Below, one piece after another: positions 2-32,579 of a stretch of 39,986 nucleotides of DNA. Made by a program: the position numbers and the translations under genes. A model generated the notes under the pieces. The model saw only the letters and a list, made by a program, of their open reading frames with translations, was not told the DNA's origin and made no database searches. Each line of letters starts with the position of its first letter. Position 1 is the first letter of the stretch. The DNA comes from Clostridia bacterium (lineage in GTDB: Bacteria > Bacillota > Clostridia > Christensenellales > UBA1242): assembly GCA_045588795.1 (NCBI GenBank), contig JAZNEY010000024.1, positions 1-39,986 of the forward strand, read 5' to 3'.

Positions 2-3000
2 GATGGAGATGGACACGCAGAGCCTGTATACTTCAACCCAGCAGATGGAAAGTTCTACGCAAAACGCACAGTTGACAAGTCATACATCTACGAGGCAGAC
101 ACAAAAGCCTTTACAGAGGTTGTGGAAATTGGTGGCGAGTATTACCTAGCAAACGAGAAAGACTACTATTCATATATAGGAAAAGAAACAGTATATTTAT
201 ATAAGAATGAATTATATACAAACTCAGCATCAAAAATCCAAGCATTCATTGACAACAATCTAGTGCTAACAGCATCAGCGATATACAACTTTGCACTTTA
301 CAATGGAGTATATTTCAGAGAAAGCAGAACAGAAAACGACACATTCGGGCTTACAATTGCAGACAAGTGGAATCCAGAAATTTCACTAGTTCAAAAGATT
401 GACCCATCAACTGGTGAGCCTCAAGTAGACGATAATGGCGACCCAGTATATGAAGAGCAAATAACATATGAAGATATCAACATTGAAGCATTATTTATGT
501 TATTTGACCAAGATGGAAATATAAGAGGCGACATAGCCTACTGGTTTGATGAAAAAGGAGCTCTAGCTGAAAAGGTTACCGTACTTATTGCAAGAGACAT
601 AGCGACAGAGGAAAAGTACAGAATAATAACAAGCGAGGCAGACATCAAGAAAGACTCAGAGGGTAACCCACTTGAAACAGTTCAGTCAGTTGAAATTGAA
701 CTTGCAGGGCTTGTATTTGACCCAACCTATCACGGAACAAAGAATGTATTTACAGATGACAAGCACACAGTAATAATTTCAAAACTTGCTCAATACTTTG
801 AAAGCGACAAACTTGCAGACTGGAACGAAACCGAGTTTACAGGAGATGAAAAAGACTACATCAACCTATACGAAAAAAGCGACAGCGAGTTATATGAAGT
901 CAAGGCAAACTTCCACGCAAACGAATTACTTGATATGCCAACATCAATCAACTACTTAGTTGCAGATGTAATAATTACGACCTATGACAACTTAAAATAC
1001 AACCTAGACAATGTGGCTAGCCCTGGCGAATATGACATTTGCCTAAGATATATCTATGACGCAGAAATTCAAAGATATGAATATCTTGGTGCACTTGGAA
1101 TTGAAACAGCAATGTTCTATGAAGTTGATGGCAGATATTACAGAATAACAGATGAAATTGGCGAAGAACACTTCTACGACCTAATTGTTGAAAGGACATA
1201 TGTAACAGATATTAAAGATGCACTTGGCGAGAATTACAGACTAATTGAACGCGAGGCAGTTCAATATGTATTTGACACTACCCCACTTGACCCTGTAACA
1301 TCAAGCGAGTTCTATCACTTATACACTGGAAAAATTGCTCAATACATTTACACAGAAAAATATAATGGAGCAGTTGTTCTTGGACAGAACTTAAAGAATG
1401 AATATATTTATTCATTAGAGATTGAGGGCTTGAAACTAACAAGCACGGGCTTTACAGAAGTTCCAACTCCAATCTATTACGCATATGAAGAACTTGACTT
1501 AACTGGTGCAAATGTAATAATCCGTACAAATTACGATTATGCAAACGCTAAAAAACTTTCATTTGATGAAACAAAAACCATTCTTCCATACTTCACAGCA
1601 GATGACCAAAGCACAAATTACGACGCAAGCAACACAACCGAGAAAGTTGTATACGACAGCGAGGGCAATGCAAGAGGTGTCGAGGGACTTACAAAGGTTT
1701 ACACATTCACAAACCCAATCAACCTACAAAAGATAGTTGTTTCTAAGGGCTCTGGGAATGTAACACTTGAAAAAGTTGTAACCTACAACAATGTAAATCT
1801 TTTAACATCATCTAATATGATAAGTGATGTTGAGATTGAGATTGCATACTACTATGCAAGTGGCTACAAAAAGAGTGGCATAGACATTTACAACTACCTA
1901 AGCACAGATGGCGACTTCTACTTCTACATAGTTGATGAAACGCTTGGCGGAGTTTACATCAAGAGTTCTGGAAAGATGTCAAATGTAAGTGGCACCGACA
2001 TATACGCATATGACTACCTATCACTTGTTGAGACCTCTTACCTAGATGAGAGCACCAACCGAGTATATTACGCAAAGGTATTTGTTGAGAAAGATGGTAA
2101 ATACCTAACGACAACAACAGCAATCACAGCCAACTTTGGAAAACTATATTATGGCTTTGCAGATGATGGAGTAGAAAGACTTGCACTTACAACCGACACA
2201 AAAACAAGAACATACTCATCATCAGGCTACATAAGAACAGCACACGCAAGCAACTCCGGTCAACAAGTAGACTTGCTTGGAAAGAGCATAATGACAAGCA
2301 CAACTCCAATCATCTACCCAAGTTTCCTAGCAGTTGCAAGCGTAACAAACCAAAGTTCAACCGACAAAGGCTTTATCTACGACAAGTCAACATATTACCA
2401 AATAGATTACAGCAGTAAAGAAATCACCAAGTACGGTTTACCGGGTGTAAAGGTACTTGATGGAGCACCTTACCCTAACACAGTTATTTCATTCAGTGTA
2501 AGACACAAGATACACGACCAAAGTGTTGTATACCTAGCACTTGAGATTGAAAAGGTATTCAGTGTAGAACTTGCGAACTATGTACAAATGAAAGACGGAA
2601 CAAACATTTCGCTCGAACATCAAACATACGCATTCAAAGACACTGAAACGAACATTGACTTAAACAACTACCCAGATGAAGTAATAGCAATAACAAACAA
2701 ACTTACATCTGAAAGTTTGTACTCATCAGACAAGTACAACCTCGCATCAAGTTCATTTGCAAAACCAAACTACTTACCAAACACCGGCGAAGTTATACTT
2801 TCAAGCAGAGATGTTGCAACAATAATGACATATGAATATGTAGACTACGAGAACAACCAATTAAAATCTGATTACACAGATATAAATTACATTTCAGACT
2901 ACCTATTCTATGACACACCAATGGTATTAATTGGCGACAGTTCTCAAAAGATGGGAGCAATCGGAACGGGTGCAAAGGTTTACGCAAAGCGAACAAACGC

Positions 3001-6000
3001 TCACGACTATTCAATCACAGTTGATAGCGCGACATATTACTATGAGGCAGATGACACCGCATCAATCTTCTACTTGCACTACGCTACCCCATTCTCATCA
3101 ATTCCAACAAATGCAAACCCATACGATTACACAAAGGTACTTGCATATGATGAGAACGGACAACAAAGTGCGACCTACTACTTTGAAAAGGTGAAGATAA
3201 CAAATTCAGCGGGAGACATCATTTACAAGAACGGAAACACTTCCGCACCATACTACTTATACACAAACGACATCACCTCGAACTTTATGCCATACGCATT
3301 TGATGAGACTTGGTCAAACAACACCAGCGACCCATACAGTGTTCGTGAAAGAATGTTAGCACTCAAAAACGGAAACGATAAGATTGTTGACAGATTAATA
3401 GCATCACACTTCAGATATAATGTAATAGATGGCTGTTGGTACGAAGTTGTATACGACATTTACAAAAATGCAACACTTAGAAATGACTACAACTACTGGA
3501 CAAGTGATTACAACAAGATTGAAAATGCCGGAACGATTGATATGCACACATACATACTTCAAGCAGATGGCTCACTAGTATTAACAAGTGAATGTACAAT
3601 CGACCAAATATGTAACGACCTATATTATGAGGACAACGCAGTAACAGAGTATGGCGAATTAATCATCTCTGGAACAACAAGTGCATACCGAACAACGATA
3701 TCATCAGTAAGCGACAAGGCAAAGAGTTATCAAGGATATTACAGAGCACTTCCATACAACATAAAGAACGCATATCTTGCAGACAGCAGTTACTTTATGA
3801 TAGGAGTTGAAGAAGTAATACTCGTAACAAACCCAACAATCACAATCACTGATGGCTTAAATTCAGTTATATACAGATTTAAAGAATGGCAAGCATTCAC
3901 AAGATACAACAGCGAAGTAATGTATAAAAACAGCGAAGTAACTTTTGAAAACGCAAACAATGCGACATTCAAGTTCACAAGCGACCTTGCAAAATATTAT
4001 GTATTCTTCCCTGTTTACGAAAGAGTCTACTCAGTAACACTAGAAAGCAGAGTTATTGATGGAGAATCTAACCAAGGTGGAACAATCACCACATACTATA
4101 AAGATGGAAAGAGAGTTGAGGGCGACAATCAAAAGATTGAGAACTCATCAAGCGACATTCACTTTATAGAGTACTCTTCAACAGGTAAAACTGAAAGTGC
4201 AGATGGAAAGACAAACCTAACCTACACATATGAAGAGATGGACATTGACAACTATATATTCACAACAGAATACCAAGCATTTGAAGTTGTGATTGATGAA
4301 AACACCGACCAAACGGTAGCACTTCCACTTTATGTATCAACAACAGAGGGTGCATTAAATGGCAGGGGCTATATGTCAGGAAAGGTACACTCATCAGCAT
4401 ACGCAGGTCCATTGTTTGCGGGAATTGCAGGTGGAACATCTTATGTATATAAATATGTATATAATAATGTTACAAAGCAATACTCACTTCAAAAGGTTAC
4501 AGATGCAAGCACAATTTCAAGCACGCTATATGATAAGATTTATTCAAACAACACCTATGTTAAAAGCACAGTTGACGCTGATACTACTGTTCCATATATG
4601 ATTGAACAAGCGATTGGTGCAAGCGACTTAAAAGTCGGCTACACCGATTTAGAGTATGGCGAAGAGGTTACAATCTTCAACATTCCGGGAGTTAACTACG
4701 GAGTAACCAAAGCAGGTACTAATAATGATTACCAATATTATTTATATTCATTATCTGAAATAGGTGCAAGCAAAGAGTTATTACCAATCAACTACTCAAA
4801 CGGAAGATACTTCTTCGTACTTGACAAAGATGGTAATTACCTAAGCGTAGACACAATAGTAAATGACTTTATTGAAAGAAACCCAGAATCATACAGCAAA
4901 CTTGCAATACTTTACGATATAAGTCAATACTCATCTGATGGAAAGATTGATGAGAAATATCTAACCTACTACGACAAGACAATGAGACAACCAACATTTA
5001 CATCAACCGCTCAACTATTCTCATTTGCACTAACACTTTACAGAGAGGGTTATGAGGGAATCCGCGATATCCTTGCTCCAATGTTTAAAGACCTTGAAAG
5101 TGCAGATGGTCCAGAATATTTCGTATACTATATGAACCCAGTTAACTACTTGTTCGAAAGCGGATATTCAAACGCACAAATCACACACAGTTCTGCAAAA
5201 CTTAACAGAACAACAAGTGCAAACATTGTAAGATTAAATCTAGACAGCAAAGATGAAGAGTTCATTCAACAACTTTACACAACAAAGAAAATCTCAATGT
5301 CAACAAACACCTCACTAATGAGTGCAATCAAGACAGGCATTTACTTTGATGTATATTCAGTTGATGACAATGCTCCAAATCTTTACATCACACACACATC
5401 AACCGGCAGACGCCACACCTACACAAAGGTTAACGCAATTGACCTAAAGGGCGGTAGTGCAATCCTATTCTACTCAGCAAGTGCAAACAGATATGTAATA
5501 AATGCAGGAACAGAAGTTACCGGTCTTGAACTTGCCGGCAACCTATTGAAAGCAAGAACAATCAACGGTGAAACCTACTACTTCTACATCACAACAACAA
5601 GCACAAGCCTAACCCTAACCAAACAAGCAGATGGCGACAACTTCGCAAGAGAGATTGTTCAAAAAGCGAACTATGTTGGAATTGAGGGCAACGACAGTAA
5701 AAGTGGCGAGTGGTATGTTTCAGCAGACACATATTACAGTGGAATGGACAATGTTTCACTCAACCAAAACTTCGACAGACACACAATCATTCAGTTGCAA
5801 GCAGTAGCAGATGATGGATACAGATTCGAGGGCTGGTATTTCGCTCAATACAACGAAGCGACTGATGAATTTGTAATCACCGAAAGAGTTGGCGGAACCA
5901 ATGATGGATATGCTTATTTAGATGAAATCAAGCACCTTGAACTTGTTGGTGAAAATTATGTAACAGTTGAGGGTGTAGAGGGCTTTGGTCTTTCAGGCGA

Positions 6001-9000
6001 ATCGCAATACTTAAAAGACGCAAATGGCAGAGTTGAAACTTTACCAGAAGCACTTGAAAACCTATACGCCGGAAAATTTATCACATATGCAGTCGTAAAT
6101 GGTACAAGAAAAAATGTTACATACGACTCAGCAAAACTTCAATATCTAGATGATAGGGGCAATGTCATAAAAGCAAGTGCCCCAAGTGATGACACTGATG
6201 AAATCAAGATTTATTCGCGTCAAGTATTTGAGGGTAATGATGGAAATTATTATTACGATTACAACCTAACATTCCAAGTTCCAACAGAACTTATAAAGTT
6301 CATTGATGACAATGAATACACCCTATTCTCTCAAACACAATTTGAGTTAGAGTCAAACGCAACAAACCTTGTATACAAATATGAAGAAACCAATGGCAAC
6401 AAATACTATTACCAAGATATGAATGGCACAGATAACGACCCATTTATGGTGAACTCAAAAGGCGAATATGTTTCAATGCTTAACACAAGCGGAGATGCAC
6501 TAAACTACAACTCATATGTTGGAACAGTTACATCAAACAACATTGTTTCATCACTAACAAGCGCACTTCGACTTGAGGGCTCAATTGATTTAACAATTCA
6601 AAATCAATCAGACAACTTCACCATTAAGAAAGCGGGCGAACCAATTGCAAAACTTGGCATTGGAACAAAGCTTAACCCAATTTCATTTGGAGAAAATCCA
6701 AACGCAAAGGGACTATTATACTCAGGCGGAAAGTTATATCCAGCAGTACAAATCAACTACACATATAAAGACACTGGATATCTTGCAATGAGATTTGTCG
6801 TTACAGTAAGCGTTTCACCAAGCGGAGACATTAACTTCGCTATTACAACAAATTACTTTAACAACGAAGAGACAGGCACAAGCCTAACAATTTCAAACGA
6901 GAATGAACTTGAAACACTTCTAACGCTAATTAACACAAAGGGCGAAGCAAAATACCTTGAAGAATTTAGCGGTATGACAGTTCAATCAAACATAAATGCA
7001 CTTTCTGCAAGGGGCGGAGAAAATCCGGGCGGAAACAATTATGTATATGATTTCCATTACAGCGTTTCAAAAGCACAAATCAGTGCAAGCGGAAGTTCGT
7101 ACAATTACATTGTAAGTTACTACCACGAAATGCTTAACCCATTTGGAACACTTACAAGCAAGGTTTCGGTATTTGAAAATGTAACGGGCCTCACAACATT
7201 CACAGTTTACGAAAGCACACCAATAAGCCTTGAATACAAATATGCAAGAACACCAAGCAATATGATGGACGCTACTGGAATGGGTGCATTCAGCAGTCTT
7301 ATGAAACCATACGGAGCGTTCTACACATTCACAACCGGAGGCTTTGATTTAAAAGAACTCGGCATTAAACAACTTGATTCAACGGGTAACGAGTCAACCA
7401 CCTCACTTACAACATTGTATTACAGACTTGCAGATGACACATTCTATTACCTAGATTACGCAGTTGATGTAACAACCGGAAGTACAACATTAAAACTAAC
7501 CGCACTTAATATGGGTGAAGAGTTCACAACTGAGCAAGCACAAAATGGCGAGGCAATCTTCAACCTAAAAGCAACAGTAAACAAACTAAGCGAAGATGAC
7601 GCAGGTGAAAGGGTTTACTTGCACGAGGGCAGACTTTACAGGACCCGCGAAGATGGCGCATACACAGTCAAGGGCGACACATTAACAATCAACCAACTAC
7701 GCGAAAATGTATACATTGTTGCAAGATTTATCGAGAACTATTACACACTTGTATTTGCAGACCAAAACGAAAACAGCACAATCCACGTTGAGGATATGTA
7801 CTATTTCGACTACGAAAGCAACAACAACGCAACAATCTTAAATGCAGATGGCGTTAAGATTCAAAGCGCAAACAGTGTTGAAACAGTCAAGTTTGGAAAT
7901 ATCTCAATGGAATACTCAATCAAGGGTGAGATGATTCCAAAGACAGCAAACCAAAAACTTCCAGATGAAGATGGTGCACTGTATGAGTACTATGTAGCCT
8001 ACTACAAAAACGGACAAGATGGTAAAGATGCGGGCGAGCAACCTGAACAAGTTACCGTATACAGTTTAGAAAACAAGTACACAAACCCGAACTTTGACCC
8101 ATATTCAGCCAAGTTCTACACCTTGTACAGAGGAAGAATGTACGAAATCAAGGCTGGCGAAAGTGGAAAGAGAGACATAGCAAATTACGACTTTGGCTCA
8201 TACATATTCGAGCAGAAGTTCGCGACCGACCAAATCAAAACGCTAAGCAGTGCAATAATTGACTATGAGGGCACCGACTACTACGCATTTACAATCACCT
8301 ACCTCACCGAAGATGAGTTCCAAAACCTATCGCAAGGAAAGGGTGCAAAGACAAAGACCGCAACAATTTACTCAAGCGAGTCAAGTCTTGGAATTCAATA
8401 CGCAGACAACAACGGAGTCAGAGTTGGCTACTTAGTTGATGGAAACGGAGAAATGCTAACATCTGGACTTGGAGTTATGAGCGGAAGTGCAGGAGATGAG
8501 TTCAAGACATCAATTGAATGCCCAGTACTTGAGGGTGGCTATTACACATTACCGCTACCTAGCGGAAATGAGATTGCATACATAAGAAGTATTGAAAAGA
8601 CAGGCGGAGATTACAACACAGCAGATTACTCATATTTATCAGCATTAACACAAAAACTTAGCCTAAAGACAGATAAAGATGGAAATGTTGTTGATGTAAT
8701 AAATCCAAAGGATATGACAATTTCAATTTCAGATGGTACCGAAGCAAAGGTTGGCGGAAGCAAGTTATCTGTAAACTTTGTAAATCAAGGTATATACATT
8801 GATACAAACACAACACTCGTTATAATTGTAAGTTGTGATGCAAAGAGCAAAATTTCTGCAAGTTACACAACAAACCCATTCTACGAATTAACCCCACTAT
8901 TCTACCCATCAGAAGAGTTTGTCAGCAGAAACGCACAAAACTACAACACAGAGGACAAATATTATGAAAAATTATATTATGCATATCTCGTAACATTCAA

Positions 9001-12000
9001 CAGAAGTCTTGAAAACGAGTACAGCGAATATATGACGCAACAATCTCGTGGCGAAAGCATAATGTTTGACACAACCGAACTTGAAAGCGACACATTCAAG
9101 AACTTGTATCAATTGAATGATAAAGAACAATTCCTATCAGACTTTGGAACAAATGTACTTGAAGAGGACACAAGAACCGCAGAAATTCTCGGAATTGAAG
9201 ATAACATTTACACATTCTACAACTACTCACAATACACCGAGAAAACACTAGTTCGTGGCTACTCATACTACTCACAAGCAACTCGCTCATTCTACGAAGA
9301 AGTTTACGAGGGCGAAACATTCAAAGGCTACTATGCATACATACTTGGCGACAACTATGATTCAGAAAGCATAGTACACGGATTTAACGCATCAGAGTAC
9401 AACGCAAACTTATTAAATCACGAAATAAATCCATACTACACGATAGCCGGCAGGCCAATTTATATGTGCATTGGAAACAGTGATGGCTCGCCAGCGGGAG
9501 GACTTGAACAACTTGAAAGAATACTTCAAAGAGATTACGGTTTCACATTTGTAAAAGATTCATATACATTGATGGAGGTTTCAACAGACATTTATGCAAT
9601 GCACAAGAAACCTACCCCATCATCAATCAAGGTAACCGAGTCAACACTAAACGAGTATTCAATAATCGCACAACAATTCTTGTACTTTATGGATACAACA
9701 ATGTCAGATATATCAATAGCGTCAATCAGAGCTGAACTTGATGTATATGGCGGAGACGGAGACAGGTATTATGAAAAATACCTAAGCCGTGAACTGGCAC
9801 TAAACGGTGAAAACAGTACCGACAAGACAGTTTACACAGGTGTCAACGGAGTTCTATCTAAGCTGTACAACGAATACCTAACCCGAAGAAACTCATATGA
9901 AACGAACGGAGACAAAACCGTACTTGAAAGTTACATTTTAAATGTTGTGAATAACCTAATTTCACTAACACACGGAGGAAGTTATTCAGACGCAAAAGAA
10001 GCAGTTAAATTCTTATTTGCAAGTTATTATGATGAGGTAAGTGCTTCTTACACTGGCGAGGGCTTGTTCTATCATTACATTGACAACGAAAAAATGCCAG
10101 AGGGCTCAACAAACCTATTAAATGTTGCACCTTACCTATTATCATTACAAACTGCAACAGCAGATGATGAAAAAGAAATCTTCCTATCTGCTTGCGACAT
10201 CTTATTTGACTTTACAATATACAGAATAGTTGAACTTGCACATACCTACTTTGGAAACGCAAGACTTGTAATAAACGAAGATTGGAAAGCAGAGATTGAA
10301 TCAGAGGAAGATTACTTGCAATTATATGAACTAGACACAATGAGTATTTTCTACAATGATGGAGCAACTGGTTCAAAGACAGAAATCACATTCAACGCAT
10401 TACTTGGCTATGCTCAATCATATTTAAAGGAAGCAAAATACGGATACGAGAAATTCACCCAAATTGCAAAAGACTTAGGTCTAACCGCTGAGGAACTTTC
10501 AGCAAGTATGACTCGCAACCCTGCCTCATTCAAGATTTTGTACAATCAAATGACAGAAAACTTGAAGAGATTGTATTTCAGAAACAAATACCAAAACAAC
10601 AACTGGGATACAACCCACGCACTAGACTTAATGAGAAACTACTTGCAGTGTTACAACGATTACAACGAATTAATCGGCAAACTTCAATATATAAGCGAAA
10701 AGAACTTCTCGCAATCGGGAGCATTAAATATCTTAAGATTCAGTTCAATAGTTGTTTACGCTCTTGATTTACAAGCCTCAATTCTAAATTACAACGAGGG
10801 CAAAGCAGATGATGATTCAACACCAGAAAACGAATATGTTGAGGGCTTCTACGAGACCCTATCACCATACGAGTTTGTTGAAGATGATGGCGACCCAAGC
10901 ACAATTGAAGCAGAGAGCGAGAACTTCATTAAACTTTATGAATTCTTTGCAGGTGTCGGCAGAGACGACATCACAGTGCTTGACACTGACGCAGATGTTG
11001 AAGCAAAAGACCTACAAAGATGGTACAAAGACTACGGTGATGATTTGACATCATTCTATGCTGGAACGGGCTTACACGAAGAAAGCCTAGAAGCAAAAGC
11101 GTACATTGAATATTTAAGAATATACAATAAATTCAAAGACAACATTGAAGATTTAAGTTACTACTACACACTTGATGAAAACAAGTTATATGCACCAACC
11201 GGCCAATACAAAACAATGACAATTGCAATTGACACACTAATGACAGTCAAAGCAAGAGCACTTGATGGAGTTGGAGCAAAGAACAATGAGTTTACTGCAA
11301 TTCAAGATGAAGATTACACAACAGTAAAACTTGCAGATGGAAACATCTACAACATAAGATTTGCTGGTTGGTATTATTCAAACCAAGCAAACACATCAAT
11401 CTCATCAGACTTTGAAAATATGACCCTACTTACAACCGACTATCAATCAGGCTTAATTGCAATGCAAAACAACACAACAATGATAGCAGTTTACAGAACA
11501 TTCGAGTACTGGTCATTCACATATAACCCAAGTGAAGTAAGAGTAAGAATCAACCAAACACACGACTCATTTGGAAATCCTCTAACCTACTCAACAGACA
11601 GCGTAACTGGAAACATTACAATTTCAGGATACTTTGATACAGGTACAAACATTGATGCAACTGTTACCCCACTTGCTGGAAAGGCATTTACATCAATTGA
11701 AAACAACTACCACAAAGTAAAAGCATTTAATGAGGCAGGAGATGAAGTTGAACTAGATAGTTTAGACGCAGTAAGATATGAATATGCTTCAAGCACTGAC
11801 CCACTTAATGCAATGCTAGTTGGAACAACAATTGAGACAAACACAAAGAGTGAAATCAACAATGCAATTGCAACAAGAACACTTCGAATGATGGTATCAT
11901 CAAAGACTTGGGAATTTGACCCATCAACACTTGAAGCAAGTGCAAAAGATATTAACTCATTTGTACTCAAAGCAGAGGAAGCAAAACTCGTAGTATTCAA

Positions 12001-15000
12001 AATCTACGGTTCAATAAGTGCTGACAAAGATGGCAACTATGTTGATGTATTCAATTACACAATCAACTGGTGGAAGAATTCAGACCCAACAAATATGAAT
12101 CTAATCACAGTTGACAAAACAGGTGCAAGCAACTTTGACCCAGAACTTTACATTGAAGAACTATTCGACCAAGAGGGAAATGTAATTGGTTCAAGATATC
12201 TTGGTGTTGATGAATTTATGCAACCAATCCAAATTGCATATGCAACAGAGACAAGCCCACTTCACTATTACATCTTTGGATACTTCAAAGAGGACACAAC
12301 AGTGTCAATATCTACCTCATCAGACAAGGGAACAGAGTTTTTAGATGCTTGGTATGTAGATGGCGAAGAAGAAAAGACTGCACAAGATGAAAACGGAAAC
12401 ACAATCATCAAGGTAACAACTGATGACCTAGCCCACCTAGCAGTTGGTTATTACGACAAACAAAGAGTTGACTTACAAGTTAACACAGTAATAATGAATG
12501 GCACATATGACGGAAGTGAGGGAAAGACCCCATTTGAATTTGGAACAGAAATTCCAGCATACAAAACATTACTTGATGATTTACTTGATGGAATTATGGA
12601 AGATTCAAACGGAATTGCCCTAAACTACGGAAAAGATGGAGCAAGATATGTTAACGGACAAAAAGCAGATGATGTTGGAAACACATTAATGCTTAAATAC
12701 TACGGATTTGATAGCACAGTGAAAGACAACTATGTACCAAACGCTTCAGGCTATCCAACATATCAATACAATTCACTATCCGAGTTTACAATAGTTACTC
12801 CAGAATATGTATACACAGATATGTACACATACAAATTTGTTGGTTGGTACAGCGTATCAAGCGGAAAATCAACTTTGGTTGCAACAACGAATGTGGTTGA
12901 CACACTAAAAGTTGATGGAAAACTTAGACTTGACGCAGTATACGAGATACTTCCAAAAGTTGACCTAGTAACAGACACAGCGAACTCTAACCTATCAGTT
13001 GAGACAGGCAACCCAGCCGGAATTTACGACTTCTTATACGGAAGAATTCCAGTAGGTGCTGAGTCAACAATCAGAGGCAACGCACAAACTGGCAGACAAC
13101 TAAAAGAAGTTATCTTCCACTATACAAACGCAAAAGGCGAGCAAACACTTGTACTTGATATGAACACATTGACCCGTGAAAATTGGGTAAGACTATTCCC
13201 TATTTACAAAGATGGAAAAATCACAACCCAAATTACTTGGCAAGAAACTGAGGACAATGGCAGGTCAACATACGAAACGACAACGAACCTTGAAAATCTA
13301 ACCAAGATAGAAATCACAACGGTACAAAACGCAAATGTGAACTTAGCATTCTCAGTTTACCAAACAGAGTTCTACGATAAACTACTTGCGACCAACACAA
13401 TTGATATGTCAAACCTACCATATATGAAGAATGATGCAAGTGATGAAGATTCATATTTATTATCAAAACGAGATAAATTTGAAATGTTCGCAGAGTATCA
13501 AAAATTCTATGTTGAAGATTTGACAAAAGATGAAAAGACTGGCATTTACAGATTTAACAAAAATCTCGCAAATCAAGGCTTTACAATTTCTGCTCCAATG
13601 GTAACATTCGAGGGCAAGACAACAAGATTTATTGGTTGGTATGTAGATGGAAAACTTGTTTCAACAGATGTAAGCTATTTTGCATACTATTCAAACGAAA
13701 CAAACAAATTCCCACAAACAAAGGTTAACGCAGGCGAGGACATCTTAATTGAGGCAAGATTCAGCGTAAGCCCAACCGCAAGTATTCTTCAAGATGAGGG
13801 CGAGGAAAACTCAGGATTCACCGTTCTTCAAATAATTGATGGAGACCCAGCAGTACTACTTCAACCATTCGCATCAAGCGAAGAACTCACAAGTGTATTA
13901 CTTGCAAACTTTGGTAAATATCAACCAGAAGTTTACACAACATTCAACGGTGTCAAAGTTAACACCCCATCAGGATTTTATAATCTAGTTGGACTTGATG
14001 GCGACAGCGAGAAGTTATATGCAACTTCTGAGGGCGAGTTAAGACCAACAGCGTTCTATGTATATGATGAAGTACTTGGTATGCTTACAGAGTTAGAAGT
14101 CAAGAGAGATAGAACACGCAGATACACAGTAATCCCATTTGCAGACTTTGCCGGAAAGACGGTAGTAGTTAACTACTCAACAGCAAGTATGGATGACCTA
14201 GGTGTTAACTTCACAGTAATGCAAACATACAACGGAACACTTACAAGAACAAGCAGTGCTGGAAACATAACTGCAACAATCTCACTGATGACAAACAGCC
14301 CAAGCGGAATGAATGTTTCAGCGACAAACAACATCTTGCAAGCAGACCTAGTAGATGGCAAACTTGAAATGTGCAGTACAACATTCCCATACGCAGAATT
14401 CTCAACAGGCGAGGCAAGTGAAGTTACACTTGAACTAGATAAACTTCAAGCGAACTTTGCTGGTTGGTATGTAAATGGAGAGTTTATCGGAAATGCACAA
14501 ACGGTAAAATTCAACCCAGACAATGGCGATATAATTGAAGCAAGGTATTACTCACAAACAAGAGTATTTGCATTTGAGGCAATCACAACAAGTTATGTAA
14601 ACGGTAAATTCGTTACAATGCGAGAATCGACAAACTTGGTAGCACTTGTTACAAACGGAAACACAGCAAGTTCAACAATTGACAATGCAACGGTTTCAGG
14701 AGCAGGCGTACCAACATCACCATACTACATTTATTCAAGCAGAAATGGCTTGATTGACCGAGTTGAAGCACTTGGAAGCACTCAAATCAGATTGTACGCA
14801 AAATCAGAACTATCAGGCGGTGCATTTGTACTTCGTGGATTCTACTACGAAACAGCAAGCGGACAACAAGTACAAATCAAATCAACACTTGAAACTGGAA
14901 GCTCATATGTTGGTGAAATCAACTTCAAATCATCAGATATCCCAGAGGGCGTTACAAAAATCTATGCACACTATGGTGCATCAACCAAGTTAACGGTTGA

Positions 15001-18000
15001 GGTAAACACCGACGGAATCACTGGAATACTTCCAGATGGAATAGTTGGAATATCTCACGGACTTGGACTTACAACCGACGCTGTTCAAAAGGAATACGAA
15101 TTTACAGTAAAACTTACCGACAGCTACGGATATGTAATCACAGGAATTGGATACAATTCAGATGGTGATGACAAAGGCATAACCCCAGTTACAGCATACA
15201 CAAGCGAGGGCGTTACAACCTACTCAGGCAAAATTGAAATACTTGGCGAAAACAACCTAGTTACAATTTACGCTAAAAACCAAATGAAGAAAGATGTGTC
15301 AGTATACACAGCGTGCTTCGACACAGTATTAACAAATCCTGTTAAAACGCAAATAGTTGGTGTAACAACACTAACTGCTGATGCGACAATGGCTTACTCA
15401 TACACAGTAGGCGACCAAAGTTACACAAAGACACTTAAATTTGTTGGTTGGTATTTACTAGAACAATCAACCGGAAAAACTTCCCTACTTGCTTACGACA
15501 AGACATTATCGCTAAATGCACAAGATGAGAACATTGACAAATATGTAATAGTTAAGAAATATGATGCAGATGGAAACAACAACTTAATTCCAACCTCTAA
15601 TGTACTAAGCGTGTCAGTTGCAGGCGAAAAAGTTTCAGCAGAGGACATCTCAGGAGTATCGGGCGACACATTTGAAAATCTTGGAATTACCCTTGAGACA
15701 ATTGAAAACACTTGCATACTTGATGCACATTCATTTGTTTCAAGCGAAATTGGAAAAGATTACTCATTTGTAGGCTGGTACAAAAACGGAGTACTACTTG
15801 GCAGAAGTTCAAGTTTGCAATATGAAATATCAAAAGGCACAAGCCAAAATGTAGAGGCAAGATTCACACAAGGCTTAGTTGAAATCATTCCAGAAGTTTA
15901 CTCAAAGAACAACGAGACAGGCGAATATGAAGTTCACCCAGAAGAAATCACCTACACAATCCTAACGACATCTACCCTATCAGTAAACAAACGGGCTGGT
16001 GCAGGACAAGATGTTCTTGTAAGTATCAAACTTCCAAAGGGCTATAAGATAAACATTGAAAAGACCCAAGAGATGATGGAAACACTTGAAACAAAAATTG
16101 ACTTCTTAGTTTGTGGAAATGACCAAGACGCAGGAAGTGCATCAATACTTGTTCCAAGACTTGCAATCGAAGCACTTATAACTGAGGGATTCAGCGAATA
16201 CACTCTTCCAATTTATCTATCAGATAAACTTCCAGAAGAGCACGAACAAATTGTTCAAACATTCGGTGGTCCAGCAGGTGATGTTGCATACGAAATCAAG
16301 CGTGAGTATGACATTGATGGAGTTAAGGACTTAGTAATTCATATCACATCATATAACACAGAAGTAACAGTTGTTAACAACCCAACAGTAACACTTGATT
16401 CACACGCATTTACATTAAACACATATTACTTCTTCTACAACCCATTCGTGTACAACACTAATGATGGCAGTGCACTTATTAATGATAATAAATACACAAA
16501 CGGTTACTCAGCACTTACAGGTGATGGAACAATTGCTGTTCCAGCAGGCACAGTATTCTATTATTACTCACTGTCAGCAAGACCAAACAACTCAACATTC
16601 AGTTCACACTACCTTGCAGATGTTGAAACCAACAATGTATTTACATTAACAACCGCACCAGTAAATACAAGAATCTTAACAAATCCAGCAAAGATTAACA
16701 CAACTTACCTAGTTCGCTCAGATGATACATCACTTCCAACCTACGACTTTGATGAATATGCTCACATATATTCACACATTAAAGACATCACAAAGAGCGG
16801 TGAAATATCTTACTATACAACCGAACTTCCTCCAATTGATGAAGTGGTTGGCTTAAGCCCATTCACAGACGCAAACCTTTATATGATGACCGACAGTGGT
16901 TATAACATCATAAGTGATAAAGTTTACAGAGCACTTCCAGGCGGAGTAACCTATTTCCAAAAGGGTTCAGAAAGACAAACATTCTATGTGAAAACGCTTG
17001 GCGACTATGTAATAAGAGAAGTTAAGTTCATAGATATTGAAAGTGGTAAAACAATCGTTGGAAAACCGGGTGAATTCTATTATGAAGATGAAGAGGACCT
17101 TGACAAAGAAGAACGAACCGCAGTTACCGAAATCATTGCAGACAACGAGTCAAAGACCTACCAAACCTACGAAATAGAGTCAACCGAGAACCACTACATT
17201 GTTGAAATTATCTTGAAAGAAGTATTCTCAATTGAGTTACAAATCAAGGTAAATGGCGAATGGCTAACGACCGAAGTAAATGATGAAGTTGGACTAGTAG
17301 ACACCGAGAATTCAGTAATCAAATTTACAGATACAAACAATATTGCATTTGTAGATGAGAGCGAATTCTACAAATTCACAGTTGATGACAAAAACCAAAT
17401 CTACTTCTTAAAAGATGACTTTGAGACAACTCAATACATTCTTGAAGAGTATGCAAAGAATTGGATTGACCCACTAAATAATGTAAGCGGTTATACATTA
17501 AATAACATTACACTTATCACAAGGGGCAAAGTTCAAGACACGGTATTCAACTATGATGGAGATTCTTCAATGAGTTTTGCGGATATGCTTGATGAGTCAA
17601 GAATCCCTGTCCTAACATCAAGAGATGGAACAATTGGTATCAAAGAAAATACAATCATTGTATTAAACTTTGCTTCACCATTTGAACTACCAACAATGAA
17701 ACTTGATGCAAAAATTGAAAAAGGACTAGCCGGAACGAAACTCAACAACGCACTTGAAAACGCACTTGAAAGAGATGGCGACATTGACTACGAAGTGAAA
17801 AACATTGGTTACGCAGAGGCAAGTATCACACTTAAAGCAAACAGTTCAGTAACTGATGAAAATGGAAACATCTTCTACTTCAAGGGTTGGTATCTTGGAC
17901 AAAATGTATATGATGAAGTACTTGATAAGACAATTTACCAAGAGACACTCATCAGCACAAGTTCATACACAACCACACAAGTGGCACCATCAGTAAACAG

Positions 18001-21000
18001 TCAATATATCGCATACTACACCCCAGAGATGAAGCAAGTAATGATTGACCTATCTGGTGTAACCGAACTTGGCGGAAAGGAAGTTACAATTAATGTTGGC
18101 GGAGTTTATTGCAAAGTAGATGATTTACTAAACACAGGCACAAAGCTAACAGTAAAACCATCAATAATAACTTCTTCATTATCTACAATTGGCGGTATTA
18201 AAGTAACAAGTGGCTATGACCAAGCGACAGGACAAATTGGATTTGAAGAGGCTCAACCAGCAATAATACTTCTAGAGATTCCACTAATGCTAATTGATAC
18301 ATTAACACACTTTACAGTTTCGTTTGGTATATCAAGTTACCAAATTGAAAGTGAAAGAATTGGAATTAACGGAGATGTTGCAAAGGTTAGTCTAGATAAC
18401 AAGACAACTATCCTATCACCTGAAAATATCACAAGTGAATCAGTTGACTTAGAAATCTCATCACAAGTACAAAAGTACAGCACAAGTTACAGAGTTAACA
18501 ATGTTGGCTCAAACGCTTATGAGGGATTTGTAAGAACAGGACATCAATTCATACCTTACTACTTCGTTGAAGCGGTAGTCGCAGGAACAACTGAGCAAAT
18601 TCAAAACAACGAAATCAAGTTCTCGCTAGAAACAACAAAAGACAGAATGCCAGAGGACCCATTAAATAGGACCAACTACCAAACTGGTGAAGTTACAGAT
18701 GAGCGTACATCAGTAATACTTCAAAGAGTTGTAACTTACGGAGAAATCGCATTCTTAAAGGTTGAATACGCAGGCGAAATTGAGTACTACGGAATCTACG
18801 AAATCACAGGGCTATCAAGTGCATACAACAGATTGCACGAAGTAAACCTAGTGAACAGACTAGAATCTAAGTACATTGAGTTTGGAAGCATAGGCGAGGC
18901 TATTACTTACGAAAATGTAACATACTCAGCAATTGGAAAGGTAATGATAGCAGATGTTGGTGAGCACACCGATTCAGATGACCTATATTACAACGCATTC
19001 TACAACGCAACAACAAAGAAACTTATAGTATTAATTGATGGACACTATTACCTATTCAGATTTAATAACGACCCAACCGTTAACAACTATGTAATTGAAG
19101 AAATTACAGCAGATGTAACAGAGGGCACACTTCTTGAGTACTACCTAGACAGTTACACAGTAGACCTTTCAATCAATGCAGAGACATCACTTGGCGGAGC
19201 AGAAACAGTTTCAATCAGTTTTGAAAGAAACATATCTGCAACAGGCAAAGCATCAATTGTTATAGGCAACGGAATGCAAACCCTAGCAAGCGCTACAATT
19301 TCAATCAGGTCAGACATTGATAATCTTGAACTAAAAACAATTTCAGATTACACCGTAAGACAAACTGTAAAAGATGTCCTCAAAAAGATTTGGGATATCC
19401 AAACAGTAAGCTTCGGCGGTCAAGACACAATGAGACTAAACTACAACGCTCTACTTGAAGAAATCAATGCCCTACCAAATGTTGTAGATGGAGCAGTCAG
19501 CAGTATTCTTTACGGTGATACATATTACCGCAGAACTGCAAAAGCGATAAAGCCGGGAACAAGAAACCTACTTGACAGCCTAGTATCTTCAACGCCGGGA
19601 CAAATTGCAACATTCATTGCATCAGTTCAAGGCTCACTTGAAGATGGAAATGTATATGTAATTGCGTGCTATGATTCAGATGAGGATTCAAACGACCCAC
19701 TTAACTACCCAACCCTAACAGTTATCCCTGAACTACAAGGCTACTGGTTCATTTATACACATTCAGAAAAGGCAAACGGAACAAGCGGATTTGGAATTGA
19801 CTACAGTGATGAAGATTACAAGTATTTTGCATACGACTTCTTCAGCATTGAAGAAAGCAAGGGCGTAAACGAGTACTTATTCACCGACTACTTTGCAGAA
19901 AGACTAAAGACTGATGGAAATTACTTAGAGGCTTGGGACAACACAAACTGGACAAGCGTATCAAAAGACCTACACAGGACAACGACTTACAAAGAATACT
20001 CAAAACTAATCAACAGAAATGTAGTTTACTTTGCAGACTTTGTAAATCTATTCCCAGATATAAACATCAAGACACTAGTCTTTGGTTGGTCAAACGATAT
20101 GGCAAACACAGAAATACAAACCGACCTCAAAAAAGATTTCGTGGCAACACTAACCACCACTCCAATGGCAGGCTACACAGATACAACAATACAATTTGTA
20201 TCATTCGGATTTTTCAGAGATGGAGCAACGGTTACATTAAAACTAACAGAACTATCGGCGACAGAAGTTGAGGAAGTTACAGACTTTACTCACGGTGCAA
20301 CAAATATAACAAATGCAATAATAACAAACAAGAGACCGGGATTTGAGGAGTTCAAAGAAGAGACAGCGCTTCCAATAACCGAGACAAAAACACACTCACC
20401 AAACGGAGCAGTTGAACTTAACGCATACGAATACAATACAGATGACATAGTTCTCCGAGATGATATGGTTTCAATAATCAATGTTTCAGCGGAAATTTTG
20501 GTTAAGTTTGATATTAACGCATATGCAATCAACAGATTTGCTACTTCAATTGATTTATCAAAACTTGCAATCAAGGGCGAGAGCAACTACTTCAAATATC
20601 TAGACCTATTGGCAGAGATGGCAGACAAAGGACTTCTTGATGAATACGAGAAAGGCTATGGAACACCAAGAGAGACAGATGAAATTATTCTTGATGAAAT
20701 AACAGATGAACAAAGAGCATTATTTGTCAAGGGCGAGGGCAGTTATCTTGAAATTGAGCAAAAAGCGTTAGAGATATATCAAGGATATGTAAACGGAATT
20801 TACAAGACCTACTCGGGCGGAAGCGTAACGACAGTAAGTGAATCATTCACAAGGTCAGATGCGGTTAAACTTCTAAAAGAACTAGCAGAAGAAGAGGAAA
20901 TTAAATACGACATAACCCTAGACATAATCGAAAACAAATTGAAGTTTATGCAAAGTTTGATTACAAAATATGCCCTAGACCTAGAGAGCGTTAACAATTT

Positions 21001-24000
21001 TGGATATGCAGTACTTGAATCAACGGTAACTGAAAGCGGAGAGAAAGCAATTTACTCAACGGTTTCACCAGATGTGAAAGTAAGCCAAGCAGGCTATGCA
21101 GAAAACCAAAGCACAGTAACAATAACTGTGAACGAGTTAACGGGCTACAAGTTCTTAGGCGTACTTGTTCGAAACGAGAGTTTATACAACTCCCCACTAG
21201 AAATCACAACTCAAACGAACAACAACAAAAACGACCAAACATTCAAAGCAAGAAATGAAGTATTCTTTGCAGTAGATAACGCACAAGAATACAGAACGGG
21301 AATAATAAGAGCCAACTGGACAAAGGCTGGTTCTGGGGTATACAACTTACTATTAACAGTTTGCGGTGCAGTAACAAGTTCATACTCAATAATTGCACTA
21401 TATGAAGATATCCTATTCCCAGTGGACCTTGACATTTACAAATATAACGACGAAAGATACTCAATTGCAGAGAACAAGACCGAAGAGGGCACAATCATAA
21501 CAGAGTATGAAATCAAAGATGGCGAAGAGATAAAGACATATGCAATTGGCGACACACTTGAATCTACCGAGTTATATGGATATAACAAAGTAAGCAAAGA
21601 ATACTTTGCAATATACAAAAACAGTGATGACAACATTTTCTACAAAGATGTTAAATACACAGACAAGTATGATGGAGACATTTACATCTTAGGCGAGAGT
21701 CCAAAGTACATTAAAGTGAACTACAACCCATACACAGATGAAGATAGCTTCGAGGGTTATGTACAAGGAAGCCTACTAGTTGGTAAATCTACCCCACTAT
21801 ACTTAACAGCAATCACTTATCCATACGGCCAATTCTCTGGCTGGTTATTTACAAACTCAGTCAGTGAAGAAGAGATAAAGGAAAGTCAAAAGCAAATTGA
21901 GGCTGAAATCAACGGAGGCACTTATTACGAGTACATAGTTGATATGAGCAAGTCTTACGCACATTCACTTACTGAATTGTTTGAAAGTCGCTATGATGAT
22001 GAATACAGATTTGATAGCAGGCACTTAGCGTCAGACTTATCAAATACCCTATTTACTCCAAACAAGATTTTCTACAACGGAAAAACTTATTACGAGTACA
22101 GATACAGAGTAATTGATGATACGAACAAAGTTAACCTTGAACACACAAAACTAGTTGAGGATTACCTAGAGTTCAAGTTAAACATTGCAGATGGAATCTT
22201 CTATTCAACATCTTCATATTCAGGAATAGAATACTTTATTTCAGAAATAAGTCCAGATATGTACACCAACACAGAAATCGAAGTTCTATTTATCAGAAAC
22301 ACCGGCGAAAAAGAAGTTATTACTTTAAATGCTTGTGCAACAGAAAACGGAGACCGAGAGAACTTCATAGTTGAAGCATTATTTGGAGAATTCTCATATG
22401 GCGGAATCAAGGGAAATATGTCAGACAATGTAATGTACTCATTCAATGATGATATGTACAGCATTGGAAACATCATCTTCTCAAGAACGAGTGCAGAAGA
22501 AAAGAATGCGAACACCGAATTCTTTGTATATGTAAACGGAAAACTAGTTAACATATTTGATGCACTTAATGGTTACTATTTTGCAACTGGCGGAACAAAA
22601 TGGAAAGATTTTGTAAACTCATTAATCCCACGCAAGGCAGAGATGACCTACGGAGAGAAAGTTTCAAACGGACCAATTTACACCTTTGCAAGCGACAACT
22701 TCCATTCAGTAACAGCAGTTGGAAGCGGAATAGTAAGCACGCTAAACGGAAGTGCATACTTACCAGAAAGCGAGGACATCAAGATATACGAAGATGTAAA
22801 GACATACAACGCATACACAGAACTTGATACCGACCCACCAACGACAGTAATTGATTTCAGCGGAGTTCAAGATGCATATTCATTTGATGAAAACCCAGAT
22901 TCAAGCAATCAAGGGCACTTCATCAAGGGTGAGAAAACGAACTACAATGTAATGTCGACCAACCTATCATACAGAGCATCAATCATAGCCTACTTTACAA
23001 CAGCGTACTACACAATGTACATAAATGTTGGCGAAGTCGAACAAATCTATGATTCAAACGGTGCAAAAGATGGAAACGGTAACCCAACCGGAGGCGAAAA
23101 GACCTATTACAGTTCATTCAAGGGAGACATAATTGAAGTTGACCAAATAACCGGAGATAAATACAACAGCGGAGCAGATAAAGGCTATTTCAAGACAAAC
23201 CCACAAGGCGGAGTTCAATTATACACACTAGACAATACCGGAAACATAGTTCAAGACAAAACAACATCAAACATTGAAAATTACATTTACGATTTAACGG
23301 GAAGTGTAATTGGAAACACAACAACTATTTACACAGTTACGACAACAGAAAATTCCGGCTACAAGAAGAACACAAACCCAACCGCAACAGCATACATAAG
23401 TAATTCTCAAGAGGGACTAAAGTCAAGCAACATTGTAGACATATATGGTGATTCAAGTAAACTTACACCACTTGAACAAATGCAAAAAGGATTTTCACAT
23501 TTCCTTAATTATGACTATATTTTGTTTAGCACTGCAAAACAAGGCAACACAGTAACCACCGGCGAATTATCATCAAGTTATGTATTCACAAAACTGAAAA
23601 ATACATATATTTGGGATTATTCAGGTCAAGGCGTTGGATATTCTAAATCTTCCCCATTCTGTGTTTCTGATAGCAGTAACAATACAAAACTTGAAAGCAA
23701 TCTAATCTTCACAATGTTATTTAAGACAAACGACCCTAAAACAATGTTTAATGATAACAACTATATAATTGTTGCATTCAATTCAATGGAAGCAATCACT
23801 CAATACACATTAAGCAATTCAGTTTCAGACATCAGTCAATATGTAACAGGCGAGGGCAATAATGCAAAGGTTAACGAAGAGAAGATTCAAATCAATACTT
23901 CAAACAAAGGCCTTGTAGACATTGTTCCAATTGTTACAACAAGCGGAGATTTCACAAAGCTTACAGCAAACAACATTACAGGCGGAATCAAGAACAAGCA

Positions 24001-31399: not shown

Positions 31400-32518
31400 T
31401 TATTCTTGTTCTTCTTGGTAATCATCAACCTCATCTTTTATCAAATCATCAAAATTCATAAAGCCTGATGCAATTTCCCCTATGCAATTTTCAGGCACAT
31501 CATACACCAAATGAACTGTTGATAAATAGTCCCCATTAAGTCTTAAAGAATATGAATAATGTCCCACTTCATAATCACCACTCACATCATCATGTCCAAA
31601 GTTTGATAAAGACGAGTAAGACAATTTTCGAGCAGCAGAACAGCGATTAGCTTTCCCAGCAAGATAACCAAAGAATTCTTTTCTAATTATATTTAAAGCC
31701 TCATCATATCCGTTTTGGTCAATTAACTTATAAGTATTTTTAAAAGTTTCTTCACTCATAAAACCGGCATCACTTCTTATCTCGCCATCAACAAGGCCTG
31801 TTAGATATGCATTACCCTCACCATCTCTTGAAACCAGTGCAAAATCATCACTTGTTGATACAAGTGTATGAACCCAGCCATTTGTATCCTCATCATCAAT
31901 ATCAAGAACAAGAGCCACATTTCTTCTTGATTTCTCGTAGTCAAGACCAGAAAGAACCAGACTATTTCTATACCTCACATACTCCGCCTTTTTGTCCATA
32001 CCTTTAACATCACTATATGATTTGTATTCACCAAATTTTTCTTCCATCTCATCAAAGCAAGCTGAACCAATTTTCTCATTCAAGATAAAATTAAAATCCG
32101 TATCATCAAACGGAGCACCAATTCCATAATCAGCCACATCAAAATCTTCAATTTGTTCTGGAATCTTTAAATCTGATGGGAATACATAATTATCTTCTGT
32201 TTCCACTTCGGTAGTTGTTTCTGGTTTTCCAGCATCACCACCCTGACTCTGTGGGTCGCACGAAGCGAGCATACTAACAAGCATTACGCCAGCGAGAGCG
32301 ACAGCGACCTTTTGCGGAATTTCCTTTCTATTTTTCACAGCGTAGTCAGCGACTGCCTTTTTAATGCCATTTTTAGCCTTTTCCAAAGCCTCTTGATTTC
32401 TTTTTTGCAATTGCACGAGAGCGACCTTTGCCTCGTTTAATTTTTCTTGAAGTCCCAAAGCGAAATTTCTAAGACTAGGCTCTTTCAAAGCCCCAACAAT
32501 TTGTTCAACAGTTTTCAT
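31400..32518 (-). CDS. membrane/lipoprotein-like protein with a roughly 70-aa helical N-terminal extension before a lipobox-like signal
   Basis: The ORF-track TTG start (32527) abuts the SD AAGGGGG. The ATG at 32518-32516 (MKTVEQ) lies 9 nt after that SD. KNRKEIPQK then VAVALAGVMLVSMLAS-C (Cys codon 32258-32260) reads as n-region, h-region and L-A-S-C lipobox. The remainder is acidic and unrecognised. Confidence 0.85.
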   Translation of the reverse strand: MKTVEQIVGALKEPSLRNFALGLQEKLNEAKVALVQLQKRNQEALEKAKNGIKKAVADYAVKNRKEIPQKVAVALAGVMLVSMLASCDPQSQGGDAGKPETTTEVETEDNYVFPSDLKIPEQIEDFDVADYGIGAPFDDTDFNFILNEKIGSACFDEMEEKFGEYKSYSDVKGMDKKAEYVRYRNSLVLSGLDYEKSRRNVALVLDIDDEDTNGWVHTLVSTSDDFALVSRDGEGNAYLTGLVDGEIRSDAGFMSEETFKNTYKLIDQNGYDEALNIIRKEFFGYLAGKANRCSAARKLSYSSLSNFGHDDVSGDYEVGHYSYSLRLNGDYLSTVHLVYDVPENCIGEIASGFMNFDDLIKDEVDDYQEEQE

Positions 32519-32549
32519 AAAGAACAACCCCCTTTATTAACATAATTTA

Positions 32550-32579
32550 ATTATACAACACGCAAAAAGCATAAGTCAA
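32550..32579 (-). promoter_or_regulatory. putative sigma-A promoter of the 372-aa gene
   Basis: On the minus strand: TTGACT (32579-32574), 18-nt spacer, TATAAT (32555-32550). Confidence 0.6.

Follow-up and report, generated by a model that had tools for sequence, protein, structure and literature searches.

What is encoded by a bacterial reading frame of 9,449 codons in which no curated domain can be recognised? The question is raised by contig JAZNEY010000024.1 of the Clostridia bacterium assembly GCA_045588795.1, of which 39,986 nucleotides (nt; positions 1 to 39,986, here called the window) were analysed. A single open reading frame (ORF) on the + strand runs from nt 2 to a TAA at nt 28349-28351 with zero in-frame stops; residues are numbered throughout with aa 1 at nt 2-4. 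Comparison of the giant protein with Pfam and NCBIfam, as a whole and in pieces of 1,000 and 140 amino acids (aa), gave nothing above threshold, and BLASTP self-comparison revealed no internal repeat even at E ≤ 10, also under a very permissive setting. To lack both a curated domain and a BLASTP self-repeat over 9,449 aa is unusual; most giant bacterial proteins are visibly repetitive. A preliminary description of the window had proposed that divergent, irregularly spaced modules resembling the InlB B-repeat (Flg_new), each marked by an F-x-G-W-Y motif, form the recognisable core of the protein. The reading favoured here, which we hold to be probable as a whole, is that these GWY modules are very distant relatives of Flg_new_2 ('divergent InlB B-repeat') and Flg_new, past recognition by the curated models, and form an array in the stalk of a surface protein.

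Recurrence and conservation of the F-x-G-W-Y motif

The recurrence of the motif is real. All eleven motif coordinates of the preliminary description lie in the frame of the giant ORF. Exact F-x-G-W-Y was found at eight sites, with the Gly at aa 1944, 3789, 4281, 4545, 4821, 5149, 5258 and 5962 (nt 5822, 11357, 12833, 13625, 14453, 15437, 15761 and 17873), only four of which fit the full [YF]-x-F-x-G-W-[YF]; the remaining three sites are variants, namely YRFKEWQ at aa 1291 (nt 3872), FLDAWY at aa 4113 (nt 12338) and QFSGWLF at aa 7277 (nt 21830). The eight exact copies compare with 0.008 expected, and 0 of 2,000 shuffles reached that count. Over 2,000 shuffles GWY, likewise observed 8 times, was expected 0.26 times, and the combination of the motif with h-x-A-x-[FY] 20-50 aa further on was observed 5 times with 0 expected. 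A two-element signature occurred 10 times (1.25 expected), and when all short gapped patterns were enumerated without bias, none was nearly as enriched in the giant protein as F.GWY. The closing strands named earlier (MIAVY, LDAVY, IEARF, IEARY and VEARF) were indeed found after five motifs, 24-40 aa past the Gly. The figures of 109-704 aa for the spacing of canonical copies were also correct, as was the statement that little sequence is shared beyond the motif, the copies being 11-30% identical and BLASTP self-repeats nil. The composition of the protein is marked by Thr (9.5%) and Tyr (8.1%), with Ser and Asn abundant and Trp (0.5%) and Cys scarce; the gene uses 48 TGG codons, and no in-frame TGA occurs in its 9,449 codons.

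Homologues were sought by an exhaustive phmmer search with aa 4200-5399 against 1.84 billion representative proteins, and all of those recovered are gene fragments. P0003 (5,573 aa, 51% identity) aligned to window aa 160-4541 and shares one contig of the Clostridia metagenome-assembled genome (MAG) GCA_017938565.1 with P0002 (927 aa). P0001 (1,515 aa, 54% identity) lies on an ENA metagenome scaffold made up wholly of the giant gene; P0004, P0005, P0006 and P0009 are further homologues, and P0007 is a more distant one (22-27% identity). Since the frame is kept at ~50% amino-acid identity over >5,500 aa on two independent metagenomic contigs, the gene is real. The GWY motifs are all kept at orthologous positions, both in homologues of ~50% and in those of 22-27% identity, and FLDAWY reads FLDGWY or LDGWY in two homologues, which makes it a genuine degenerate copy. 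A word-indexed protein search with aa 3720-6032 returned no homologue, the true ones apparently having been crowded out at the limit of 8,000 candidates, whereas phmmer did find some, and searches of genome and metagenome contigs with a segment of the giant gene found no related locus. As the ORF is open at the left edge of the window, the N-terminus lies outside it. P0003 appears to reach ~940 aa beyond that edge, itself apparently cut near its contig start, and the full-length protein is probably >10,000 aa.

Both known relatives of the giant gene are interrupted, and the window copy is intact. On JAGBBI010000282.1 an in-frame TGA (L082:9974-9976) stands at the Arg of 'KTT-R-FIGWY', where the window has AGA (nt 13625-13627), and splits the gene call into P0003 (5,573 aa) and P0002 (927 aa). 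A nonsense mutation, recoding or an error of assembly could each account for it. On ENA ERZ28594457 scaffold_209 a frameshift in an A-rich run (L081:9960-10001) splits the homologue into calls of 6,612 and 1,515 aa.

Family relationship and arrangement of the modules

The preliminary description had named the lack of significant Flg_new or List_Bact_rpt matches as evidence against its proposal, and no match above cut-off was in fact found. The curated cut-offs are 23.6 bits for Flg_new_2 (PF18998), 27 for Flg_new (PF09479) and 20.95 for TIGR02543 (List_Bact_rpt), and the best scores stayed below them at 19.2, 18.3 and 10 bits, respectively; on the whole giant protein Flg_new_2 scored 11 bits. 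When 35 single modules drawn from the window and its homologues were scanned against Pfam, sub-threshold matches were obtained to Flg_new (4 of 35), Flg_new_2 (3 of 35, E ≤ 0.1) and PKD_3 (3 of 35), and Flg_new, Flg_new_2 and the cross-reacting PKD_3 were the only models matched repeatedly. The proposed B-repeat-like core thus stands in part: the modules are the only part of the 9,449 aa that resembles a known family, Flg_new_2/Flg_new, and no copy reaches the curated cut-offs.

A relationship became visible in comparisons of greater sensitivity. The phmmer search described above reached a single protein outside the giant protein's own family, the tandem Flg_new_2 protein P0010 (E=2.1e-7, 14 matched stretches), in which Pfam recognises Flg_new_2 12-fold at E=1.4e-118. 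Likewise, the region profile A3 reached P0011, a protein with Flg_new, LRR_5 and Flg_new_2, among 5.8 billion sequences (E=7.9e-4). A hidden Markov model (HMM) built from the 14 repeats of P0010 scored 64.8 bits on the giant protein, against ≤5.6 in 30 shuffles, and placed domains on 9 of the 11 reported sites (not aa 1296 and 7281) and on a new site at aa 7023-7053. In hhalign, alignments of the module profile with genuine Flg_new_2 repeats had a probability of 93-97% and spanned 41-62 columns, from the preceding to the closing strand (P0010 repeats: 97%, E=5.7e-11, 45 columns; P0011 repeats: 93-96%; pairwise E from 6e-11 to 3e-7). When the motif's five columns were masked, 4 of 6 comparisons still recovered this register, at E ~1e-3. 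A MAFFT/HMMER profile from 8 modules recovered only its own training copies.

The degenerate GFY/GIGY versions that were said to lie between the canonical copies are present (e.g. LRGFY, FYVYD, QITWQ and GIGYN), and P0007 has YYLYGWR, NYKFIGY and YMFKGFYY exactly opposite TQITWQ, AFYVYD and VLRGFYY of the window. The three-element pattern is visible by inspection at aa 3906, 4024, 4413, 4688, 4947 and 5052. With these copies counted, the modules follow one another head to tail with a period of 93-165 aa across ~aa 3760-5300 (nt ~11285-15900), the Trp-equivalent positions being aa 3790, 3906, 4024, 4117, 4282, 4413, 4546, 4688, 4822, 4947, 5052, 5150 and 5259. The long gaps and the apparently irregular spacing of canonical copies are more readily accounted for by intervening copies that have lost the signature. 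Profile alignments of degenerate copies were in register in 13 of 60 cases, against 5% in the reversed-control null (p ~7e-6, with pairs that are non-independent). Further 'VLVSIKLPKGYKINI'-type segments suggest that the array continues through aa 5290-5960. Outside aa 3700-6010 the profiles detect only the aa 1944 copy, and the sites at aa 1296, 7045 and 7281 are unproven candidates; a profile scan of aa 1-3700 and 5901-end found no further significant copies, and a protein composed throughout of detectable GWY modules was therefore no longer considered.

Predicted fold and competing readings

The InlB B-repeat of the Flg_new type, known from PDB structure 2Y5P, adopts the ubiquitin-like fold called beta-grasp. 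An AlphaFold2 model of the aa 4821 module from an eight-paralogue alignment was all-beta, with six strands, at a predicted local distance difference test (pLDDT) score of 59, and a Foldseek search with it gave no match at E<0.5. A larger model of aa 4752-5343 (592 aa, six homologues) reached pLDDT 63, with blocks mostly at 65-91 across ~aa 5040-5310; its structure is all-beta, and in all five modules strands coincide with the motif and with the closing element. Within it the aa 5258 module was modelled as beta-beta-short helix-four strands (pLDDT ~70-91), an order that fits beta-grasp and is not diagnostic of it. Foldseek against the PDB matched the 592-aa model to chains of immunoglobulin (Ig)-like domains, namely SpaC (6m48, E=1e-5), PitA (7w6b), PirB and complement C3; for SpaC and PitA the E-values were 1e-5 to 2e-5, at template modelling (TM) scores of only 0.1-0.18.

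Several results count against the favoured reading, in addition to the sub-threshold scores given above. Masking of the motif lowers the profile-profile probability to 1-19%, so that most of the signal lies in the five residues. The comparison set is not independent, because P0010 was found with the giant protein as query; P0011 likewise came from its region profile. For the profile of genuine Flg_new_2 repeats (A5, from P0010), light-chain V domains of antibodies ('DRVTITC...WY', E=0.0017) are a better match than InlB 2y5p (E=0.038), which means that the pattern is not unique to B-repeats and can arise in other beta-folds; this match cautions against inferring homology from 'vTltA ... F-x-WY' alone. 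Against PDB sequences the module profile gave chance matches only, with InlB 2y5p absent, and P0010 found nothing there; in a word-indexed search of 5.8 billion sequences, with 230 candidates scored, module profile A4 found nothing either. Neither of the moderate-confidence AlphaFold2 models (pLDDT 59 and 63) matched a beta-grasp or B-repeat structure in Foldseek. The degenerate copies are individually not significant, with the exception of the aa 3906 module against the N-terminal half of the aa 4117 module (hhalign 32.8, probability 73%; reversed-sequence control at most 18.1). Finally, with the N-terminus outside the window, a signal peptide and any adhesive tip are unseen.

The modules could instead be generic Ig-like or PKD-like beta-sandwich stalk domains whose motif pattern reflects convergent core packing, in which case the protein would still be a surface stalk and not a Flg_new relative. 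The ranking of SpaC, PitA, PirB and C3 at the top of the Foldseek matches speaks for this, as do the size of the modelled modules (~6-8 strands and ~100 aa, bigger than the 70-aa B-repeat), the weak profile similarity once the motif is masked, the antibody V domains that share the pattern and the curated thresholds, none of which was reached. The Foldseek TM-scores of 0.11-0.18, however, reflect the multi-domain chain and not a single module, and the masked alignments still hold the same register from the preceding to the closing strand. PKD_3 was matched as often as Flg_new_2, but it also cross-matches the genuine Flg_new_2 repeats of P0010 (E=6.5e-18) and therefore does not discriminate between the two readings. 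Outside the giant protein's own family, the full-library phmmer and profile searches reached only Flg_new_2-type proteins. On balance we regard convergent Ig-like or PKD-like domains as unlikely.

The preliminary description had suggested a super-repeat architecture, in which canonical B-repeats would each sit inside a larger, non-canonical unit of several hundred residues. Mid-array canonical motifs 264, 276 and 328 aa apart fit such a unit, and one hhalign alignment runs ~45 aa past the module (aa 5256-5333 against 4819-4894, probability 83%). Yet degenerate module copies sit mid-way in these 264-328-aa intervals, only 109 aa separate the aa 5149 module from the aa 5258 module, and BLASTP self-comparison is empty. 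An orthologue-enriched alignment of aa 3600-6100 (MAFFT --addfragments), compared in 100-residue windows with the whole region by hhalign, gave module-to-module matches only: this held for every off-diagonal match of >10% probability, and the spacers were dissimilar. The sole spacer match (aa 3853-3896 against 4068-4113, 9.5%) lies within the N-terminal half of the aa 3906 module and that of the aa 4117 module. The super-repeat was accordingly not borne out by the self-comparison, and we find it quite improbable. Still less can be said for a motif recurring by chance or composition, or for an ORF that is not a real gene, a view favoured by the lack of database annotation and nothing else, and of negligible probability; chance and composition are excluded by the shuffle counts together with the conservation of the motifs in homologues, and the frame itself is the one kept at ~50% identity on two contigs.

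Under the favoured reading of the GWY modules as distant Flg_new_2 and Flg_new relatives, the product of the giant ORF would be a surface protein of an uncultured gut Clostridia bacterium, beta-rich and with a high content of Thr, Tyr, Ser and Asn. F-x-G-W-Y would form the central strand of a small beta-domain with a conserved core of ~50-70 aa, flanked by a preceding 'h-T-h-x-A' strand and the closing 'h-x-A-x-[FY]' strand, with Trp and aromatic residues presumably packing the domain core. Such domains would be joined head to tail, roughly every second copy without Gly-Trp, with isolated copies at aa 1944 and 5962 and perhaps at 1296, 7045 and 7281. The C-terminal transmembrane helix would hold the protein in the membrane; hydropathy predicts it as an anchor at the cell surface, and as no LPXTG was found near the C-terminus, anchoring would be by this helix and not by sortase-mediated cell-wall linkage.

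The array most likely serves as the stalk of a giant adhesin-like protein. This role is suggested by the predicted membrane anchor, by the modelled all-beta domain chain with its adhesin-like structural matches, and by stalk or spacer use of these domains elsewhere, the B-repeat having been described as a spacer/stalk domain of a surface protein (bioRxiv 10.1101/2024.12.31.630911) and Flg_new as a stalk domain in fibrillar adhesins (bioRxiv 10.1101/2021.12.07.471604). The array would then be rod-like and, in the manner of the repeat domains of fibrillar adhesins, project the protein's distal part outward from the cell; divergence of neighbouring copies could limit misfolding and recombination between them, and some copies may bind ligands. 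A bolder version, which we consider rather unlikely, is that Flg_new_2 has in these modules a sister family that is new and deeply diverged, its units of ~100-130 aa forming a contiguous array of >2,000 aa (~aa 3760-6010, perhaps more) within a protein of >10,000 aa that has no other recognisable domain and no sequence repetition that can be detected. If this were true, the giant stalk would be almost wholly non-repetitive, each domain having diverged past recognition; it would be useful for testing how misfolding and recombination between domains are avoided in giant multi-domain proteins, and would seed domain families for many unannotated giant genes of gut Clostridia.

Genomic setting and comparison with known systems

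The coordinates of the modules and of the C-terminal features are collected in Table 1.

Table 1. Giant ORF, candidate modules and C-terminal hydrophobic segments in the window, in order of position
Feature	Position (nt)	Strand	Remarks
Giant ORF	2..28351	+	9,449 codons + TAA; ~50%-identity homologues over >5,500 aa; no above-threshold Pfam/NCBIfam match
Possible variant module, aa 1270-1340 (VILVTNPT ... IYRFKEWQ ... YYVFFPVYE)	3809..4021	+	80-85% conserved in orthologues; profile score 15.6, not significant
Canonical module, aa 1923-1990 (YRFEGWYF)	5768..5971	+	Outlier far upstream of main array; conserved in P0003 and L081; top Pfam match among all copies (Flg_new_2 19.2 bits, E=0.0012; Flg_new 18.3 bits); P0010-repeat HMM 13.0 bits
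Canonical module, aa 3762-3832 (IRFAGWYY ... MIAVYR)	11285..11497	+	
Degenerate module, aa 3870-3945 (ITISGYFDTGTNIDATVTPLAGKAFTSIENNY)	11609..11836	+	hhalign and sequence inspection
Possible degenerate module, aa 3995-4060 (LVVFKIYG ... FNYTINWWKN)	11984..12181	+	Inspection only; 1/12 alignments in register; weak
Variant module, aa 4095-4160 (EFLDAWYVDG ... HLAVGYY)	12284..12481	+	Orthologues FLDGWY/LDGWY; hhalign against aa 4821 module 29-33, in register
Canonical module, aa 4257-4318 (YKFVGWYS ... LDAVYE)	12770..12955	+	hhalign against aa 5149 module: probability 91%
Degenerate module, aa 4390-4460 (VRLFPIY ... TQITWQ ... NVNLAFSVY)	13169..13381	+	P0007 YYLYGWR here; 4/13 alignments in register, null 5%
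Canonical module, aa 4524-4592 (TRFIGWYVDG ... IEARFS)	13571..13777	+	P0010-repeat HMM 17.5 bits; hhalign against aa 4821 module 93-97%
Degenerate module, aa 4660-4730 (KLYATSEG ... AFYVYDE ... TVVVNYS)	13979..14191	+	P0007 NYKFIGY here; 4/13 alignments in register
Canonical module, aa 4796-4852 (EVTLEL ... NFAGWYVNG ... IEARYY)	14387..14557	+	Copy most Flg_new_2-like; P0010-repeat HMM 17.4 bits, profile positions 24-73; best phmmer stretch to P0010
Degenerate module, aa 4920-4992 (QIRLYAKS ... FVLRGFYYE ... KIYAHYG)	14759..14977	+	P0007 YMFKGFYY, L081 LLQGFFY here; caught by two-element pattern; 5/12 alignments in register; modelled strands at motif and closing element
Degenerate module, aa 5030-5093 (VKLTDSYGYVITGIGYNSDG ... 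LVTIYAKN)	15089..15280	+	Inspection; 2/11 alignments in register; AlphaFold2 strands at local 293-302 and 334-342, pLDDT ~65-84
Canonical module, aa 5122-5190 (LKFVGWYLL ... YVIVKKY)	15365..15571	+	Strongly conserved, six homologues; model pLDDT 66-86
Canonical module, aa 5230-5292 (YSFVGWYKNG ... VEARFT)	15689..15877	+	P0010-repeat HMM 11.9 bits; hhalign against aa 4545 and 4821 modules 86-95%
Canonical module, aa 5943-6010 (FYFKGWYLG ... YIAYYT)	17828..18031	+	
Possible degenerate module, aa 7023-7084 (STVTITVNELTGYKFLG)	21068..21253	+	P0010-repeat HMM 6.6 bits, shuffle maximum 2.0; hhalign probability 5%
Possible variant module, aa 7255-7300 (LYLTAITYPYGQFSGWLF)	21764..21901	+	Inspection only; no orthologue coverage
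Predicted C-terminal transmembrane helix, aa 9335-9353 (EIIAIVITIIIVVTIIIAT)	28004..28060	+	Kyte-Doolittle 19-residue mean 3.2
Second hydrophobic stretch, aa 9386-9413, then short tail	28157..28240	+	Downstream of transmembrane helix

The G+C content of ~38% drops to 33-35% over the final 4 kb of the giant ORF (window 24001-28351) and remains low further downstream. Starting 720 nt 3' of the giant gene, a 610-aa ORF (window 29071-30903, + strand) carries a hydrophobic, signal-like segment at the N-terminus, a transmembrane segment at the C-terminus and three SH3b-like motifs of the type 'YGYI[KR]'; it gave no match to Pfam or NCBIfam and could represent another surface protein encoded at this locus. 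The remaining genes 3' of the giant gene are small and mostly unannotated, together with CarD-like and MazG-like genes, an arsenic-efflux permease, tRNA-Leu and tRNA-Cys. The closest matches of the permease, from gut MAGs of uncultured Clostridia and Candidatus Onthoplasma, share no more than 57% identity with it, so that the host belongs to a poorly sampled lineage of gut Clostridia; the loci of these permease relatives showed no synteny and no homologue of the giant protein. On the - strand, window 31400-36746 and 38732-39982 hold several ORFs of 141-416 aa that gave no Pfam or NCBIfam match save one insignificant BioB trace and have no relatives among 80 Clostridia loci, which fits a poorly sampled lineage.

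Most giant genes in uncultured gut Clostridia lack annotation, and the chain of modules opens a way into one of them. From module alignments enriched with orthologues, a new Pfam family could be started or PF18998 be extended, which would improve the detection of adhesin-like surface proteins in gut metagenomes. As a large surface stalk or adhesin is expected biology, what would be gained is above all annotation reach rather than a new mechanism.

With the Flg_new_2 protein P0010 the modules share the order of elements (h-T-h-x-A, [GY]-x-F-x-G-W-Y, short strands and a closing h-x-A-x-[FY]), and both are found in very large surface proteins of Clostridia. They differ in period, which is 93-165 aa here (109-704 aa for canonical copies only) and 69-81 aa in P0010, and in the identity of neighbouring copies, which is <30% here and 23-41% in P0010; about half of the copies here are without Gly-Trp, and the N-terminal half of the Pfam domain can barely be aligned to the modules. 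The GY-x-F-x-GWY strand is likewise shared with the InlB B-repeat and Flg_new, whereas the closing strand is IEARF or IAVY here and not LYAKW.

Proteins of 10,000-30,000 aa with Listeria-Bacteroides repeats have been described from gut Clostridia by West-Roberts et al., who proposed a role in adhesion (bioRxiv 10.1101/2023.11.21.568195). The giant protein resembles them in bacterial class, gut habitat, length of ~10,000 aa and repeat family; theirs, however, carry recognisable Pfam repeats, whereas none is above threshold here and no repeat is detectable by BLAST. A similar comparison can be made with fibrillar adhesins and periscope proteins such as SpaC and PitA, with which it shares a long chain of small beta-domains, Thr richness and a C-terminal cell anchor, albeit a predicted transmembrane helix in place of an LPXTG sortase signal, and with repeats that are hyper-divergent rather than near-identical. 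The long stalk of repeated small beta-domains typical of fibrillar adhesins is seen in the all-beta model, the module array and the Foldseek matches to pilus adhesins, whereas the near-identical, length-variable tandem repeats of periscope proteins in the narrow sense are not (11-30% identity, no BLASTP repeat). Giant repeat proteins of gut Clostridia and divergent adhesin stalk domains are thus both already known, and what is unusual about the present protein is the degree to which its modules have diverged.

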